Numbered from the stretch's first letter, positions 3,707-10,046 are shown. The stretch is 64,000 nucleotides of DNA from Escherichia coli (GCF_003334355.1 NZ_QOWP01000022.1), one strand, 5' to 3'. Notes: generated from the sequence alone by a model not told the origin. Program-made: numbers and translations.

Positions 3707-4111
3707 ATGCGTGCTTTACCGATCTGTTTAGTAGCACTCATGCTAAGCGGCTGTTCCATGTTAAGCAGATCCCCTGTCGAACCCGTTCAAAGCACTGCAC
3801 CCCAGCCGAAAGCGGAGCCTGCAAAACCGAAAGCGCCGCGCGCCACGCCGGTCCGAATTTATACCAATGCAGAAGAATTAGTCGGCAAACCGTTCCGCGA
3901 TCTCGGTGAAGTCAGTGGCGACTCTTGCCAGGCCTCTAATCAGGACTCTCCGCCGAGCATTCCAACCGCACGTAAGCGGATGCAAATCAACGCCTCTAAA
4001 ATGAAAGCCAATGCTGTATTACTGCATAGCTGCGAAGTCACCAGCGGTACGCCAGGCTGCTATCGTCAGGCTGTATGTATCGGTTCTGCGCTTAACATTA
4101 CGGCGAAATGA
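3707..4111 (+). CDS. rcsF: Outer-membrane lipoprotein RcsF (Rcs envelope-stress sensor)
   Basis: ORF track, 134 aa; lipobox LMLSGC, proline-rich linker, conserved Cys residues. Confidence 0.95.
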   Translation: MRALPICLVALMLSGCSMLSRSPVEPVQSTAPQPKAEPAKPKAPRATPVRIYTNAEELVGKPFRDLGEVSGDSCQASNQDSPPSIPTARKRMQINASKMKANAVLLHSCEVTSGTPGCYRQAVCIGSALNITAK

Positions 4112-4815
4112 GCAGTTTCCAGTTCGAGCAAATAGGCGTTATTCGCTCGCCCTATAAAGAAAAGTTCGCCGTTCCGCGCCAGCCAGGTCTGGTAAAAAGC
4201 GCCAACGGCGAACTGCATCTCATTGCTCCCTACAACCAGGCCGACGCCGTTCGCGGCCTGGAAGCGTTCAGCCATTTATGGATCCTTTTCGTCTTTCATC
4301 AAACGATGGTAGGCGGCTGGCGTCCGACTGTGCGTCCACCGCGCCTCGGCGGTAACGCCAGAATGGGGGTTTTCGCAACACGCTCTACTTTCCGCCCTAA
4401 CCCAATTGGCATGTCGCTGGTAGAGCTGAAAGAGGTTGTTTGCCATAAAGACAGCGTGATTCTGAAGCTCGGCAGTCTGGATCTGGTCGATGGTACGCCG
4501 GTAGTGGATATCAAACCGTATCTCCCCTTTGCCGAATCGCTTCCCGATGCCAGTGCCAGCTATGCGCAAAGTGCGCCAGCTGCAGAGATGGCGGTGAGTT
4601 TTACCGCAGAGGTCGAAAAGCAGCTTTTGACGCTGGAGAAGCGTTATCCGCAGTTAACGCTGTTTATCCGCGAAGTACTGGCGCAGGACCCGCGCCCGGC
4701 CTATCGTAAAGGTGAGGAAACGGGCAAAACCTATGCCGTCTGGCTACATGATTTTAACGTTCGCTGGCGCGTCACCGACGCAGGTTTTGAAGTCTTTGCG
4801 CTGGAACCGCGTTAA
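4108..4815 (+). CDS. tsaA: tRNA (t6A37) methyltransferase TsaA/YaeB family
   Basis: ORF track, 235 aa; 4-nt overlap with rcsF; sequence recognised as YaeB. Confidence 0.9.
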   Translation: MSSFQFEQIGVIRSPYKEKFAVPRQPGLVKSANGELHLIAPYNQADAVRGLEAFSHLWILFVFHQTMVGGWRPTVRPPRLGGNARMGVFATRSTFRPNPIGMSLVELKEVVCHKDSVILKLGSLDLVDGTPVVDIKPYLPFAESLPDASASYAQSAPAAEMAVSFTAEVEKQLLTLEKRYPQLTLFIREVLAQDPRPAYRKGEETGKTYAVWLHDFNVRWRVTDAGFEVFALEPR

Positions 4816-4926
4816 ATTCACGCCCTTCTCTTTTGACATTTCTTTTGCACTGGTAAACTAAATCACTTTTTTTTGTCCCAGGCTCGCCTTGAGCCTGTTC
4901 TACCTTCCAACTGGAACCGTAACAAC

Positions 4927-6645
4927 ATGCGTACTAGCCAATACCTGCTCTCCACTCTCAAGGAGACACCTGCCGACGCCGAGGTGATCAGCCATCAGCT
5001 GATGCTGCGCGCCGGGATGATCCGCAAGCTGGCCTCCGGGTTATATACCTGGCTGCCGACCGGCGTGCGCGTTCTGAAAAAAGTCGAAAACATCGTGCGT
5101 GAAGAGATGAACAACGCCGGTGCGATCGAGGTGTCGATGCCGGTGGTTCAGCCAGCCGATTTGTGGCAAGAGAGTGGTCGTTGGGAACAGTACGGTCCGG
5201 AACTGCTGCGTTTTGTTGACCGTGGCGAGCGTCCGTTCGTACTCGGCCCAACTCATGAAGAAGTTATCACTGACCTGATTCGTAACGAGCTTAGCTCTTA
5301 CAAACAGCTGCCGCTGAACTTCTATCAGATCCAGACCAAGTTCCGCGACGAAGTGCGTCCGCGTTTCGGCGTCATGCGTTCCCGCGAATTCCTGATGAAA
5401 GATGCTTACTCTTTCCATACTTCTCAGGAATCCCTGCAGGAAACCTACGATGCAATGTATGCGGCCTACAGCAAAATCTTCAGCCGCATGGGGCTGGATT
5501 TCCGCGCCGTACAAGCCGACACCGGTTCTATCGGCGGCAGCGCCTCTCACGAATTCCAGGTGCTGGCGCAGAGCGGTGAAGACGATGTGGTCTTCTCCGA
5601 CACCTCTGACTATGCAGCGAACATTGAACTGGCAGAAGCTATCGCGCCGAAAGAACCGCGCGCTGCTGCTACCCAGGAAATGACGCTGGTTGATACGCCG
5701 AACGCGAAAACCATCGCGGAACTGGTTGAACAGTTCAATCTGCCGATTGAGAAAACGGTTAAGACTCTGCTGGTTAAAGCGGTTGAAGGCAGCAGCTTCC
5801 CGCTGGTTGCGCTGCTGGTGCGCGGTGATCACGAGCTGAACGAAGTTAAAGCAGAAAAACTGCCGCAGGTTGCAAGCCCGCTGACTTTCGCGACCGAAGA
5901 AGAAATTCGTGCCGTGGTTAAAGCCGGTCCGGGTTCACTGGGTCCGGTAAACATGCCGATTCCGGTGGTGATTGACCGTACCGTTGCGGCGATGAGTGAT
6001 TTCGCTGCTGGTGCTAACATCGATGGTAAACACTACTTCGGCATCAACTGGGATCGCGATGTCGCTACCCCGGAAGTTGCAGATATCCGTAACGTGGTGG
6101 CTGGCGATCCAAGCCCGGATGGCCAGGGTACGCTGCTGATCAAACGTGGTATCGAAGTTGGTCACATCTTCCAGCTGGGTACCAAGTACTCCGAAGCACT
6201 GAAAGCCTCCGTACAGGGTGAAGATGGCCGTAACCAAATCCTGACGATGGGTTGCTACGGTATCGGGGTAACGCGTGTGGTAGCTGCGGCGATTGAGCAG
6301 AACTACGACGAACGAGGCATCGTATGGCCTGACGCTATCGCGCCGTTCCAGGTGGCGATTCTGCCGATGAACATGCACAAATCCTTCCGCGTACAAGAGC
6401 TTGCTGAGAAACTGTACAGCGAACTGCGTGCACAAGGTATCGAAGTGCTGCTGGATGACCGCAAAGAGCGTCCGGGCGTGATGTTTGCTGATATGGAACT
6501 GATCGGTATTCCGCACACTATTGTGCTGGGCGACCGTAACCTCGACAACGACGATATCGAATATAAATATCGTCGCAACGGCGAGAAACAGTTAATTAAG
6601 ACTGGTGACATCGTCGAATATCTGGTGAAACAGATTAAAGGCTGA
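4927..6645 (+). CDS. proS: Prolyl-tRNA synthetase (class II)
   Basis: ORF track 4873-6645 trimmed to the ATG at 4927 (MRTSQYLL..., 572 aa); class II aaRS motifs including [17 protein letters not shown]. Confidence 0.95.
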
Positions 6646-6698: not shown

Positions 6699-7523
6699 AT
6701 GGATAAACCAAAGGCGTACTGCCGCCTGTTTCTCCCCAGCTTTCTTTTACTTTCGGCTTGTACCGTTGATATCAGCCAGCCAGACCCATCAGCCACAGCA
6801 GTAGATGCCGAGGCAAAAACATGGGCTGTCAAATTCCAGCATCAAAGCTCTTTCACCGAACAATCAATAAAAGAAATAACGGCACCTGATCTCAAACCCG
6901 GCGATTTGCTGTTCTCCTCAAGCCTTGGGGTAACCTCATTTGGAATCCGCGTCTTCAGCACTTCCTCTGTGAGTCACGTTGCAATCTTTCTGGGTGATAA
7001 TAACGTTGCAGAAGCGACAGGCGCTGGCGTCCAGATCGTTTCCCTTAAAAAAGCGATGAAGCATAGTGATAAGCTTTTCGTCTTACGAGTCCCGGATCTT
7101 ACCCCGCAACAAGCCACAGATATCACCGCGTTTGCCAATAAAATCAAAGATAGCGGTTATAACTATCGCGGCATTGTCGAATTTATTCCCTTTATGGTGA
7201 CTCGCCAGATGTGCTCACTGAATCCGTTCTCCGAGGATTTTCGCCAACAGTGCGTCAGCGGCCTGGCGAAAGCGCAGTTAAGCAGTGTGGGCGAAGGAGA
7301 CAAAAAGTCGTGGTTTTGTTCGGAATTTGTCACGGATGCCTTTGCCAAAGCCGGGCATCCACTTACACTGGCGCAATCGGGCTGGATTAGCCCTGCCGAT
7401 CTGATGCATATGCGTATTGGTGATGTCTCTGCGTTTAAGCCAGAAACGCAGTTACAGTATGTTGGGCACCTGAAGCCTGGGATTTATATCAAGGCGGGTC
7501 GCTTTGTTGGTTTGACCCGGTGA
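6699..7523 (+). CDS. yaeF: Lipoprotein YaeF (putative papain-like Cys peptidase/amidase family)
   Basis: ORF track 6645-7523 trimmed to the ATG at 6699 (MDKPKAY..., 274 aa), since the upstream extension overlaps the proS terminator; lipobox LLLSAC. Confidence 0.85.
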   Translation: MDKPKAYCRLFLPSFLLLSACTVDISQPDPSATAVDAEAKTWAVKFQHQSSFTEQSIKEITAPDLKPGDLLFSSSLGVTSFGIRVFSTSSVSHVAIFLGDNNVAEATGAGVQIVSLKKAMKHSDKLFVLRVPDLTPQQATDITAFANKIKDSGYNYRGIVEFIPFMVTRQMCSLNPFSEDFRQQCVSGLAKAQLSSVGEGDKKSWFCSEFVTDAFAKAGHPLTLAQSGWISPADLMHMRIGDVSAFKPETQLQYVGHLKPGIYIKAGRFVGLTR

Positions 7524-7533
7524 TAAAGTAAAT

Positions 7534-7666
7534 GCCTTATCCGCCTTAAGGTATGAGGGGGGTTGTAGGCATGATAAGACGCGCCAGCGTCGCATCAGGC
7601 GTTGAGCACCTAATTCAAAATGTTGCATTATATGCTGTAGGCCTGATAAGCGCAGCGCATCAGGCA
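7534..7666. repeat. REP/BIME cluster between convergent yaeF and nlpE
   Basis: Seen in sequence: two full REP units (GTAGGCATGATAAGACGCGCCAGCGTCGCATCAGGC and GTAGGCCTGATAAGCGCAGCGCATCAGGCA) plus a partial GCCTTATCCGCC. Confidence 0.8.
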
Positions 7667-7696
7667 ATTTTGCGTTTGTTTCTGCCTTAAGCAGGT

Positions 7697-8407
7697 TTAC
7701 TGCCCCAAACTACTGCAATCCTTATTCGGGTAAAATTTACCCGCCGTATCGGGCGCTAATACTTTGGTTGGCGCACCAGTATCCGGATTAGCCTCAAGCG
7801 TAAAGTGACCTTCTACTGACAGTAACACCGGTTTTTCACTGTGACCGCGCGCAGCCAGGTAGCTACGCTCCAGCTCTGCGTTATTCGCTACCATGAAACG
7901 TTTTCCGGTCGCGCAATCAGTGAAGGTCGCCACATCAGCCATATAAAAATACATGCCCCGCAGGGTCATCGGCGTCAGGGGTAAACTGGATTGTGCCGGT
8001 TCCAGCGTATAGTTGAACTGCGATTCAATCGGATTGCCTTCACGATCGAGCATCTCCAGCGCATCGCCTTTGGCCCGATAATATGACTTTTCACCTTTGC
8101 TGTCGGTTAATACCAGCTTGTCAGCGGTTCGCGCCCATGTACCGTAGGAAGCGAAGGAGGAAGGTTCTTCACGAGCACCGAGATAACGCTCATTCATCAC
8201 CCATGTTCCGTCTTTTTCGAGGAACAGAGAGGTTTCGATTCCTTCGCAATCAGCACACGGCAGCACGCCGCGCCAACTTTGCGGCATCGGTTTCAGTTCG
8301 GCAGCCTGTGCTGGAGAAAGCGTATCGACTTCGGCCCGGTTATTACATCCCATCAGAGTAAAGAGGCTGATTACAGCCATCGCTGTCACTATCGCTTTTT
8401 TCACCAT
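7697..8407 (-). CDS. nlpE: Outer-membrane lipoprotein NlpE (CutF), Cpx pathway activator
   Basis: ORF track, 236 aa; lipobox LFTLMGC; CxxC motif (CADC). Confidence 0.93.
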   Translation of the reverse strand: MVKKAIVTAMAVISLFTLMGCNNRAEVDTLSPAQAAELKPMPQSWRGVLPCADCEGIETSLFLEKDGTWVMNERYLGAREEPSSFASYGTWARTADKLVLTDSKGEKSYYRAKGDALEMLDREGNPIESQFNYTLEPAQSSLPLTPMTLRGMYFYMADVATFTDCATGKRFMVANNAELERSYLAARGHSEKPVLLSVEGHFTLEANPDTGAPTKVLAPDTAGKFYPNKDCSSLGQ

Positions 8408-8420
8408 CTATTCCTTCTTT

Positions 8421-8843
8421 TTATTCCCGACCGCTGCGTACTTTGCCGCGCATCGCCTTCACGCTTGATTTTTGTGCTTTCGATGCCAGCCTGCGCTCTT
8501 TCGATGCACGGGTGGGCCGTGTGGGTCGTCGGGCTTTTTGTTCTGTTGTTAAATCTTTAATCACTGCCACCAGCCGGGCTAGCGCGGCTTCGCGGTTCAG
8601 TTCCTGACTGCGGTATTCCTGTGCCTTAATGACAATCACGCCATCACTGCTGATCAAATGATGGCTGGCGGCGAGTAGACGCTCTTTGTAATACTCTGGC
8701 AGGCTGGACGCCCGAATGTCAAAACGCAGATGAATGGCCGTTGAGGTCTTATTAACATGCTGCCCGCCCGCGCCCTGCGCACGAATGGCGGTGATCTCAA
8801 GCTCACCATCGGGAATAGCAACATGTCGGGAAATCACAATCAT
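8421..8843 (-). CDS. arfB: Peptidyl-tRNA hydrolase ArfB (YaeJ), alternative ribosome-rescue factor
   Basis: ORF track, 140 aa; catalytic GGQ motif ([10 protein letters not shown]); basic C-terminal tail. Confidence 0.95.
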
Positions 8844-9385
8844 GAAGGTTGTTGCCAGGCGGTTAAGTTAACTTCCAGATTATTCTTATCGTCCGATAAC
8901 CAGATCACGCCATCCTGAATCGTTGCCTGCAGCGTCATGGTACGATCGGCAAAGGCGCTTACTTTCGCCAGTTGTTCATCGTCCAGATACCAGACGGAAA
9001 GATTGGCAAACTGCACACATTTGCTCTGATTTTGCTGCCACCAGATTTGCGCCGCCCGACTATTATAGGTAAACAGCGCCACTTCTGCGGCCTGGGTGCA
9101 GGCTTTCTTAATCCGCCGCTCATCCGGCAGCCCCAGCTCAATCCACAAATCAATGCCCAGGTGATCGTTACGCAGCCACGCTTCCGGCTCATCATCGGCA
9201 CACAAACCACGGGTAAATTGCAGACGTTCATCAGCATATTTCAGCCACGCCAGCAAGCGCAGCATCATACGCTCCTGGGTTTCTGAAGGGTGGCGCGCCA
9301 GCGTCAGAGAGGCATCGAGAAACTGGTTGCGGTCGAGATCGGCCACATTAACCGTCGCTTTATAAATTGTCGCTTTAAGCGCCAT
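8840..9385 (-). CDS. yaeQ: YaeQ family protein (function unknown)
   Basis: ORF track, 181 aa; 4-nt overlap with arfB. Confidence 0.88.
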
Positions 9386-9550
9386 AAGAAAACTCCTTTC
9401 GAATCAGGAGGCCATTGTAACGGAATACGTGCAGTTGCGGCGCTGATATTGCAGAAATGAGTGTGGTATAGTCACCTTGCGAAACAGAGTTTATCTTCGT
9501 AGGCTTAGACTTGCATCCACGGTTAAGTCAGAGTGCTGACAGGAGGGCAT

Positions 9551-9751
9551 GTGGAAAAATATTGTGAGTTAATACGCAAGCGGTACGCGGAAATCGCCAG
9601 CGGAGACTTAGGATACGTTCCGGACGCGCTGGGCTGCGTTTTGAAAGTGCTGAATGAAATGGCTGCCGACGACGCCCTTTCTGAGGCTGTCAGGGAAAAA
9701 GCAGCATACGCTGCGGCAAACTTACTGGTGAGCGATTATGTCAATGAATGA
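9551..9751 (+). CDS. yaeP: Small protein YaeP (UPF0253, 66 aa)
   Basis: ORF track 9533-9751 trimmed to the GTG at 9551, which is preceded by AGGAGG at 9541-9546. Confidence 0.85.
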
Positions 9752-9998
9752 TACGTATCAACCAATCAATTGTGATGATTACGATAATCTTGAGCTAGCC
9801 TGCCAGCATCATTTAATGCTGACACTTGAGCTGAAAGATGGCGAAAAATTGCAGGCAAAAGCCAGCGATTTAGTCTCCCGCAAAAATGTGGAGTATCTGG
9901 TCGTCGAGGCCGCTGGCGAAACCCGTGAGCTACGTCTGGATAAAATTACCAGCTTTAGCCACCCGGAAATCGGTACGGTGGTGGTGAGCGAGTCCTGA
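9744..9998 (+). CDS. rof: Rof (YaeO), Rho-specific inhibitor of transcription termination
   Basis: ORF track 9738-9998; K-12 start taken at the ATG at 9744 (MNDTYQ..., 84 aa); overlaps the yaeP 3' end. Confidence 0.9.
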
Positions 9999-10006
9999 TT
10001 GACTTT

Positions 10007-10040
10007 CGCCGGATGCGACGTTTGATGCGTCTTATCCGGC
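10007..10040. repeat. REP element between convergent rof and tilS
   Basis: Seen in sequence: CGCCGGATGCGACGTTTGATGCGTCTTATCCGGC palindrome. Confidence 0.8.
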
Positions 10041-10046
10041 TTTCAC

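Follow-up and report, generated by a model that had tools for sequence, protein, structure and literature searches.

The yaeQ-arfB-nlpE locus

The window, a 64,000-nt stretch of Escherichia coli DNA (NZ_QOWP01000022.1), carries yaeQ, arfB (yaeJ), and nlpE next to one another on its minus strand, with yaeP-rof diverging from yaeQ on one side and yaeF converging on nlpE on the other. The order of transcription of the three minus-strand open reading frames (ORFs) is yaeQ, arfB, nlpE. Coordinates of the three ORFs were taken from the ORF list and from the raw sequence; the features of the locus, listed from the promoter-proximal end, are as follows.

9414-9419, minus strand: candidate −10 hexamer (TACAAT) of a putative yaeQ promoter whose −35 is weak; the hexamer precedes the yaeQ start codon by 28 nt
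9393-9398, minus strand: yaeQ Shine-Dalgarno sequence (SD), AAGGAG, 7 nt before the ATG
8840-9385, minus strand: yaeQ coding sequence, 181 aa, YaeQ family (PF07152), first gene in the unit
8840-8843, minus strand: ATGA junction at which the yaeQ TGA stop and the arfB ATG start overlap, without an upstream SD
8421-8843, minus strand: arfB (yaeJ) coding sequence, 140 aa
8408-8420, minus strand: arfB-nlpE spacer, 13 nt, AAAGAAGGAATAG, which includes the nlpE SD (AAGGA, 8412-8416)
7697-8407, minus strand: nlpE coding sequence, 236 aa
7568-7647, no strand assigned: REP-type palindromic elements between the convergent nlpE and yaeF genes

A preliminary description of this DNA gave the nlpE-arfB gap as 13 bp and the arfB/yaeQ overlap as a 4-nt ATGA, and both values are exact. 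It also described a tightly packed, co-directional unit, which is what we find: three minus-strand ORFs whose two junctions (yaeQ-arfB and arfB-nlpE) leave no space for a promoter or a terminator. However, it placed the uncharacterized gene at the end of the unit; because the unit is read from the minus strand, yaeQ instead opens it and is promoter proximal. Junctions of this kind, 4-nt ATGA overlaps and 13-nt spacers, are among the commonest within bacterial operons, and the tight packing of the unit is ordinary operon architecture.

Bases 7400-9700 of the window are 100% identical to several complete E. coli chromosomes, and at least 80% of the stretch is found in 5,423 of 5,426 complete E. 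coli genomes. The RefSeq annotation of a 100%-identical chromosome lists a YaeQ family protein, ArfB, and NlpE; the gene names given at the outset are borne out by this annotation as well as by NCBIfam, Pfam, and PDB entry 3C0U. The locus is that of the E. coli K-12 yaeQ-arfB-nlpE operon, with the same gene order, 4-nt overlap, SD-less arfB, and flanking REPs; there is no substantive difference, the earlier description having followed plus-strand order only. Said et al. (2024; PMC11018626) delimited the "yae locus" as MG1655 positions 213,630-216,140, reported that arfB has no SD and overlaps the upstream ORF by 4 nt, and drew "insulating REP elements" at either end. A RegulonDB-derived table gives "arfB,nlpE,yaeQ" as one operon (PMC4448311), and an ethanol-induced expression signature contains both yaeJ and yaeQ (PMC1599756). 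A role for yaeQ in translation was likewise proposed earlier, for Enterobacteriaceae, by GeCoViz in 2022 (PMC9252766). Thus, the operon, the 4-nt overlap, the lack of an arfB SD, and the inference of a translation role are already known from literature and annotation.

The two better-characterized products are readily assigned. ArfB matches the NCBIfam equivalog NF006718 with 201.2 bits (cutoff, 100) over residues 1 to 136 of 140, and matches Pfam RF-1 with an E value of 3e-25; its 140-aa translation has a GGQ motif and a basic C-terminal tail and lacks a codon-recognition domain. By these criteria, ArfB is predicted to be the alternative ribosome-rescue peptidyl-tRNA hydrolase, and hydrolysis of peptidyl-tRNA on stalled ribosomes is established for E. 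coli ArfB in the literature reviewed in PMC3989581. NlpE matches the NCBIfam equivalog NF007814 with 397.4 bits (cutoff, 243), and its N terminus, MVKKAIVTAMAVISLFTLMGC, has the lipobox LMGC of a lipoprotein signal peptide; its sequence identifies it as the Cpx-activating outer-membrane lipoprotein.

The 147-bp region upstream of yaeQ is common to yaeQ and the divergent yaeP-rof promoter. Its TACAAT hexamer is invariant among the aligned yaeQ upstream regions of Enterobacteriaceae and Erwiniaceae, and the remaining conserved blocks correspond to the extended −10 and the −35 of the yaeP-rof promoter on the opposite strand. A strict consensus promoter scan missed the yaeQ candidate because it has no recognizable −35; the yaeQ promoter is probably weak. 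Downstream of it, a minus-strand consensus scan found neither promoter-like nor convincing terminator-like sites between the genes, and no σ70-like minus-strand site in arfB or in the 3′ half of yaeQ; the sole σ70-like match on this strand of the unit lies inside nlpE (8106-8078). Past nlpE, the REP-type region includes a subthreshold match to the REP-derived Rfam family naRNA4 (7568-7635) and an inverted repeat (7594-7647), and such subthreshold, REP-like naRNA4 matches were the only known RNA elements found in or around the unit. These REPs likely mark the 3′ boundary of the transcript. A further REP is located after rof.

Signals for translation initiation differ among the three genes. The calculated anti-SD duplex upstream of yaeQ has a free energy of −8.2 kcal/mol in Escherichia albertii locus L002, the closest relative, whose upstream sequence is the same as that of the window, and a median of −6.9 kcal/mol across 27 Enterobacterales loci. 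For arfB, which lacks an SD, the best upstream duplex has a median of only −2.1 kcal/mol (23 Enterobacterales loci), with values of about −1.5 to −2.7 kcal/mol in most Enterobacterales; loci L016 and L021 are exceptions, with SD-like pairing upstream of arfB. The corresponding value for nlpE is −6.2 kcal/mol, and the AAGGA/AGGAG SD-like motif upstream of nlpE is kept in other genera.

A downstream gene without an SD whose start codon overlaps the preceding stop codon is the architecture of a translationally coupled operon, and yaeQ-arfB has it. The trpB-trpA genes of the E. coli trp operon are a coupled pair with overlapping stop and start codons; yaeQ-arfB resembles pairs of this type both in its stop/start overlap and in the absence of an SD for the downstream gene, and arfB expression is therefore expected to depend on yaeQ translation. 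The translational coupling proposed in the preliminary description thus has its classic signature, but it would run in the other direction, with arfB coupled to yaeQ. This coupling is read here from the sequence. The products of a classic coupled pair are usually subunits or partners in a pathway, but we know of no functional relation between YaeQ and ArfB.

Neighborhoods of yaeQ within and beyond Enterobacterales

We scanned one genome per species (GTDB) with an alignment of 13 YaeQ sequences and kept the best 80 loci, in which ArfB, NlpE, YaeP, Rof, TilS, and YaeF were placed by tblastn before the junctions were inspected. Twenty-seven of these loci are from Enterobacterales, 25 of them with enough downstream sequence to judge. 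The adjacency of arfB and yaeQ is nearly universal in the order: arfB directly follows yaeQ on the same strand in 23 of the 25 informative loci. Stop and start codons overlap (ATGA, GTGA, or TGATG; −4 or −1 nt) in 19 of these 23, including most Enterobacteriaceae and Erwiniaceae, and gaps of +1 to +3 nt separate them at the remaining four loci (Serratia, Edwardsiella, Yersinia, and one of Enterobacter). An ATGA overlap and a 13-nt spacer are in themselves statistically ordinary; it is their conservation across genera that is beyond chance.

The third gene is less constant: nlpE follows arfB in 20 Enterobacterales loci, after a spacer of 13 to 93 nt, and the units of three genera (L006, L016, and L028) lack it. 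Conversely, Pectobacterium and Dickeya have yaeQ and then nlpE, with arfB absent from the locus, which weakens the hint, drawn in the preliminary description from coupling to arfB, of a translation- or RNA-related role for yaeQ. The yaeQ-arfB pair can also be lost, since an E. albertii genome has a YaeQ-ArfB chimera without the GGQ domain. The one apparent YaeQ plus RF-1 fusion (P0018) was considered as a Rosetta-stone fusion and rejected, because it is a deletion chimera.

The remaining 53 of the best 80 loci are proteobacterial loci outside Enterobacterales and include Aeromonas, Marinobacter, Pseudoalteromonas, Shewanella, and many Betaproteobacteria; 48 of the 53 have at least 1 kb of sequence on both sides of yaeQ. 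In tblastn searches, nlpE, yaeP, and rof were found near yaeQ in none of the 53, and arfB lay within 4 kb in only four, even at E values up to 10 (E < 10). Thus, yaeQ-arfB adjacency is conserved across enterobacterial genera, yet it is not a feature of the YaeQ family as a whole. In all four non-enteric cases the order is reversed, with arfB preceding yaeQ: the genes overlap by 11 nt in two Lamellibrachia symbionts (L046 and L047), meet at a TGAcATG junction (+1-nt gap) in a metagenome-assembled genome (MAG) of Gallionellaceae (L077), and are 268 nt apart in an uncultured gammaproteobacterium (L079). In a neighbor-joining tree of 81 YaeQ sequences, these cases represent three scattered lineages far from the Enterobacterales clade. 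If one arfB occurs per ∼3,500 genes, we estimate that ∼0.03 chance adjacencies would be expected in 53 genomes; by this estimate, chance does not account for how often arfB and yaeQ have become, or stayed, neighbors in the two orders.

Clustering of all ORFs at these loci yielded only one other recurrent non-enteric neighbor, an RhlE-like DEAD-box RNA helicase (NCBIfam), which is found within 1.4 kb of yaeQ in seven of the 53 loci and directly adjoins it in four. The helicase gene is co-directional and just downstream of yaeQ in Thalassolituus and a Desulfuromonadales MAG, divergent and upstream in three Neisseriales and L079, and convergent in an Ectothiorhodospiraceae MAG. Single loci also have tightly spaced, co-directional neighbors, among them an ABC-F ATPase gene (L074), a gene for an IMPACT/YigZ protein (L071), and a weakly RNase HI-like ORF (L053); others encode LrgB, AcuI, an FKBP isomerase, YajQ, and an OmpA-like lipoprotein. 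At the genus level, yaeQ neighbors include genes for LrgAB, bacterioferritin, phosphomannomutase, and a transporter, and no RNA-related neighbors were found around a distant YaeQ representative on its single 24-kb contig. The non-enteric context of yaeQ is therefore mostly variable, with a minority of RNA or ribosome flavor, and gene context lends modest, nondecisive support to a role of YaeQ in RNA or ribosome biology. As a hint at such a role, coupling to arfB is weakly borne out: reversed-order arfB and the RhlE-like neighbors point in the same direction, but arfB adjacency is absent from 49 of the 53 non-enteric loci. Compared with the literature that we searched, the reversed-order arfB cases and the RhlE-like helicase association are small additions.

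The YaeQ protein family

YaeQ is a small, self-contained, single-domain protein with what appears to be a PD-(D/E)XK-like fold. It matches Pfam PF07152 (COG4681) end to end (E = 3e-71), and its residues 2 to 181 are identical, residue for residue, to PDB entry 3C0U ("yaeQ"). The family is of modest size, with 1,544 clusters at 50% identity (E ≤ 0.001), and has four solved structures; the YaeQ structure was reportedly described by Guzzo et al. in 2007. Longer YaeQ proteins were considered as candidate domain fusions and set aside, their N-terminal extensions looking like miscalled start codons.

We evaluated residue conservation among 49 diverse representatives (≤50% identity). E35, R43, G85, and W115 are invariant, and H32, P33, S34, R39 (98%), F57, W81, P87, A95, and V102 nearly so; E66 is kept in 90%, and an acidic residue (D or E) occupies position 68 in 90% but position 83 in only 82%. 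When mapped on an AlphaFold model of YaeQ (pLDDT, 95.9), the conserved residues form a pattern in which a Glu opens helix 1, a P-(D/E) pair opens a strand, and an acidic residue in the next strand lies two positions before the invariant Gly. That Gly, G85, occupies the position of the canonical PD-(D/E)XK lysine; K94, which is Lys in 76% of representatives, is a possible substitute. As modeled, YaeQ appears to have a PD-(D/E)XK-like motif without its lysine, a catalytic motif that is incompletely conserved. The PD-(D/E)XK superfamily includes restriction endonucleases, XPF/Hef, and Tox-REase-5 toxins (Steczkiewicz et al. 2012, PMC3424549). The nuclease fold led us to consider YaeQ as an anti-phage defense protein, a candidate that was rejected when no PADLOC match was obtained at E ≤ 0.1. 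In the searchable literature, no biochemical function or phosphodiester-hydrolyzing activity has been reported for YaeQ; as far as the citing papers relate it, the sole functional claim is multicopy suppression of rfaH (Wong et al. 1998), which is disputed (PMC9252766 and PMC3197603).

Expression of the unit and possible roles of YaeQ

The arrangement is very probably the known tricistronic E. coli operon, with a weak but conserved promoter, coupling of arfB to yaeQ by termination and reinitiation, and independent initiation at nlpE. Most likely, a weak σ70-type promoter with the conserved TACAAT −10 drives one tricistronic mRNA, which would end in the REP elements beyond nlpE. yaeQ would be translated from its own AAGGAG SD, and ribosomes terminating at its UGA would restart at the overlapping, SD-less arfB AUG; because of this restart, ArfB synthesis would be tied to, and capped by, YaeQ synthesis, and a back-up rescue factor would be kept scarce. 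Overexpression from a multicopy plasmid is needed for ArfB to rescue an ssrA arfA double mutant (PMC3989581), which fits a low native level resulting from SD-less, coupled translation. nlpE, 13 nt farther on and with an SD of its own, would be translated independently; its pairing with yaeQ-arfB is particular to Enterobacterales and has no evident functional meaning. For YaeQ itself, our best guess is that it binds or cleaves nucleic acid, probably RNA, under the same stress conditions in which ArfB acts.

We think it improbable that the genes do not share a transcript, that is, that nlpE and possibly arfB are expressed mainly from promoters inside the upstream coding sequences, so that their spacing would not reflect coregulation. 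Such an organization would be in keeping with the strong SD of nlpE, the variation of the arfB-nlpE spacer among genera (13 to 93 nt), the apparent weakness of the yaeQ promoter, and the commonness of internal promoters in E. coli operons, and an internal nlpE promoter may lie inside the arfB coding sequence. However, our scan detected no minus-strand σ70-like site in arfB or the yaeQ 3′ half, an SD-less arfB would hardly be translatable from a transcript starting just upstream of it, and the database listing cited above (PMC4448311) treats the three genes as one operon. A shared transcript is thus the reading that we retain, and the question becomes what, if anything, the linkage says about YaeQ.

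One answer is that it says nothing: yaeQ, arfB, and nlpE could be a frozen accident, sharing a promoter while their functions are unrelated, with coupling serving only to set a low level of ArfB. We hold this to be neither more nor less probable than its negation. It would account for the restriction of nlpE, yaeP, and rof linkage to Enterobacterales, for units without nlpE (L006, L016, and L028) or without arfB (Pectobacterium and Dickeya), for the highly variable surroundings of yaeQ elsewhere, and for the E. albertii chimera that has dispensed with the GGQ domain. What it explains poorly is the separate placement of arfB beside yaeQ, with the order of the two genes reversed, in three or more further lineages, which is hard to understand without a selective link. 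The same adjacency, against the ∼0.03 cases expected, is an argument for a functional partnership in which YaeQ would be an RNA- or ribosome-directed PD-(D/E)XK phosphodiesterase or binder that works with ArfB, a proposal that we regard as doubtful but worth entertaining. It is consistent with the RhlE-like helicases near yaeQ at seven of the 53 non-enteric loci, with the single co-directional ABC-F, IMPACT/YigZ, and weakly RNase HI-like neighbors, and with the conserved cluster of acidic and basic residues in YaeQ (E35, R39, R43, E66, D/E68, E/D83, and K94). One possibility under a partnership is that YaeQ trims or clears mRNA on stalled ribosomes, allowing the ArfB C-terminal tail to enter the empty channel. 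Pairings of nucleases with ribosome rescue have precedents in SmrB with tmRNA and in the processing of arfA mRNA by RNase III; by analogy, YaeQ, if it cleaves RNA, would yield nonstop complexes for the rescue factor. The YaeQ fold is unrelated to both the SMR domain and RNase III, and we take the analogy as a lead rather than a finding. A mutant of the YaeQ homologue in Pseudomonas aeruginosa has altered tolerance to tobramycin, a ribosome-targeting drug (PMC3197603), which also favors a partnership.

A role for YaeQ in the elongation or termination of transcription, rather than in translation, is very unlikely. The multicopy suppression of rfaH mutations (Wong et al. 1998), known here through the papers that cite it, would suit such a role, as would the position of yaeQ back to back with rof, which encodes a Rho inhibitor; however, yaeQ and rof are linked only within Enterobacterales, and rof itself, if present on the suppressing clones, could speculatively explain the suppression. 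A narrower proposal, that YaeQ is an RNA- or ribosome-directed PD-(D/E)XK enzyme in the ArfB branch of ribosome rescue, is rather unlikely as it stands; we raise it because arfB and yaeQ are independently adjacent in both orders, RhlE-like neighbors recur, and single loci pair yaeQ with ABC-F or IMPACT genes. In this branch, YaeQ could, for example, act with an RhlE-type helicase in RNA processing or free the entry channel of a stalled ribosome from mRNA.

The position of yaeQ has a practical consequence. Because yaeQ is promoter proximal and arfB probably depends on its translation, yaeQ insertions are likely polar on arfB and nlpE, including the yaeQ::kan insertion in E. coli K1 that causes a gut-colonization defect (PMC5847654); phenotypes assigned to yaeQ therefore need confirmation with nonpolar mutations. 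For the family, the recurrence of arfB and RhlE-like helicases beside yaeQ in unrelated lineages is a cheap, testable lead to the role of an orphan protein, and placement in the ArfB branch, if true, would supply a role for proteins whose crystal structures have been available for more than 20 years without one.

A direct repeat and the apparent loss of arfB

An 11-nt direct repeat, GATGGCGTGAT, occurs on the minus strand once in arfB (8635-8645) and once in yaeQ (8904-8914), with a spacing of 269 nt between the copies; 0.03 such matches are expected by chance. Deletion between the two copies would yield exactly P0018, a 231-aa protein of Escherichia albertii in which Pfam recognizes both YaeQ and RF-1. 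Its YaeQ part extends through ...QDGVI and is followed by an ArfB part starting VIKAQEYRS..., a junction that leaves out the GGQ domain. Rather than a true YaeQ/RF-1 domain fusion, P0018 looks like a natural arfB/yaeQ knockout that arose by microhomology deletion.

In two Pectobacteriaceae loci, those of Pectobacterium zantedeschiae (L024) and Dickeya oryzae (L027), yaeQ is followed directly by nlpE (about 4001-5300), and tblastn detected neither arfB nor an arfB remnant at either one. The operon's arfB appears to have been lost in Pectobacteriaceae.

Sequences around yaeQ and the divergent yaeP-rof pair

Features of the yaeQ-arfB-nlpE/yaeP-rof locus
7568-7647: REP-type palindromes, on one side of the locus
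9393-9410, minus strand: 5-bp hairpin CTCCT-GATTCGAA-AGGAG, whose upstream, anti-SD-like arm pairs with the yaeQ Shine-Dalgarno (SD) sequence
9443-9472, plus strand: extended -10 promoter of yaeP-rof, CTGATA-18-TGGTATAGT, well conserved
9551-9998: yaeP-rof pair, divergent from yaeQ
9997-10041: REP-type palindromes, on the other side

The SD hairpin is intact in E. coli and E. albertii only, with one mismatch in Citrobacter, and part of it may lie upstream of the transcription start. As for the outer boundaries, the REP-derived Rfam family naRNA4 matches the REP-type palindromes at 32.6 and 23.5 bits, both below its gathering score of 59.5 bits; no canonical intrinsic terminator was found 3' of nlpE on the minus strand.

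The yaeP-rof pair is a second coupled pair at the locus, the counterpart of yaeQ-arfB: taking the annotated start of rof, the two genes share 14 nt, and initiation at the second ATG of rof (9744) would shorten this overlap to 8 nt. The Rho inhibitor gene rof lies back-to-back with yaeQ (9385-9998). Multicopy "yaeQ" clones reportedly suppress rfaH defects, although this report is disputed; we speculate that rof could explain the suppression, if the suppressing plasmids carried it.

Neighbors outside Enterobacterales and the yaeQ::kan phenotype

RhlE-like DEAD-box RNA helicase genes adjoin yaeQ, in mixed orientations, in 7 of the 53 non-enterobacterial loci from the YaeQ alignment scan; two other neighbors were each seen at a single locus.

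Genes near yaeQ (positions within each locus)
L042, 4548-5915: RhlE-like helicase
L053, 4589-5992: RhlE-like helicase
L075, 2429-3787: RhlE-like helicase
L076, 4622-5899: RhlE-like helicase
L057, L069, and L079: RhlE-like helicase, further loci
L074, 4530-6203: ABC-F ATPase, co-directional, immediately 3' of yaeQ
L071, 4542-5159: IMPACT/YigZ, co-directional, immediately 3' of yaeQ

An E. coli K1 yaeQ::kan mutant is reported to be defective in colonization of the small intestine (PMC5847654). Since yaeQ is promoter proximal and arfB translation depends on it, this defect may reflect polarity on arfB and nlpE.
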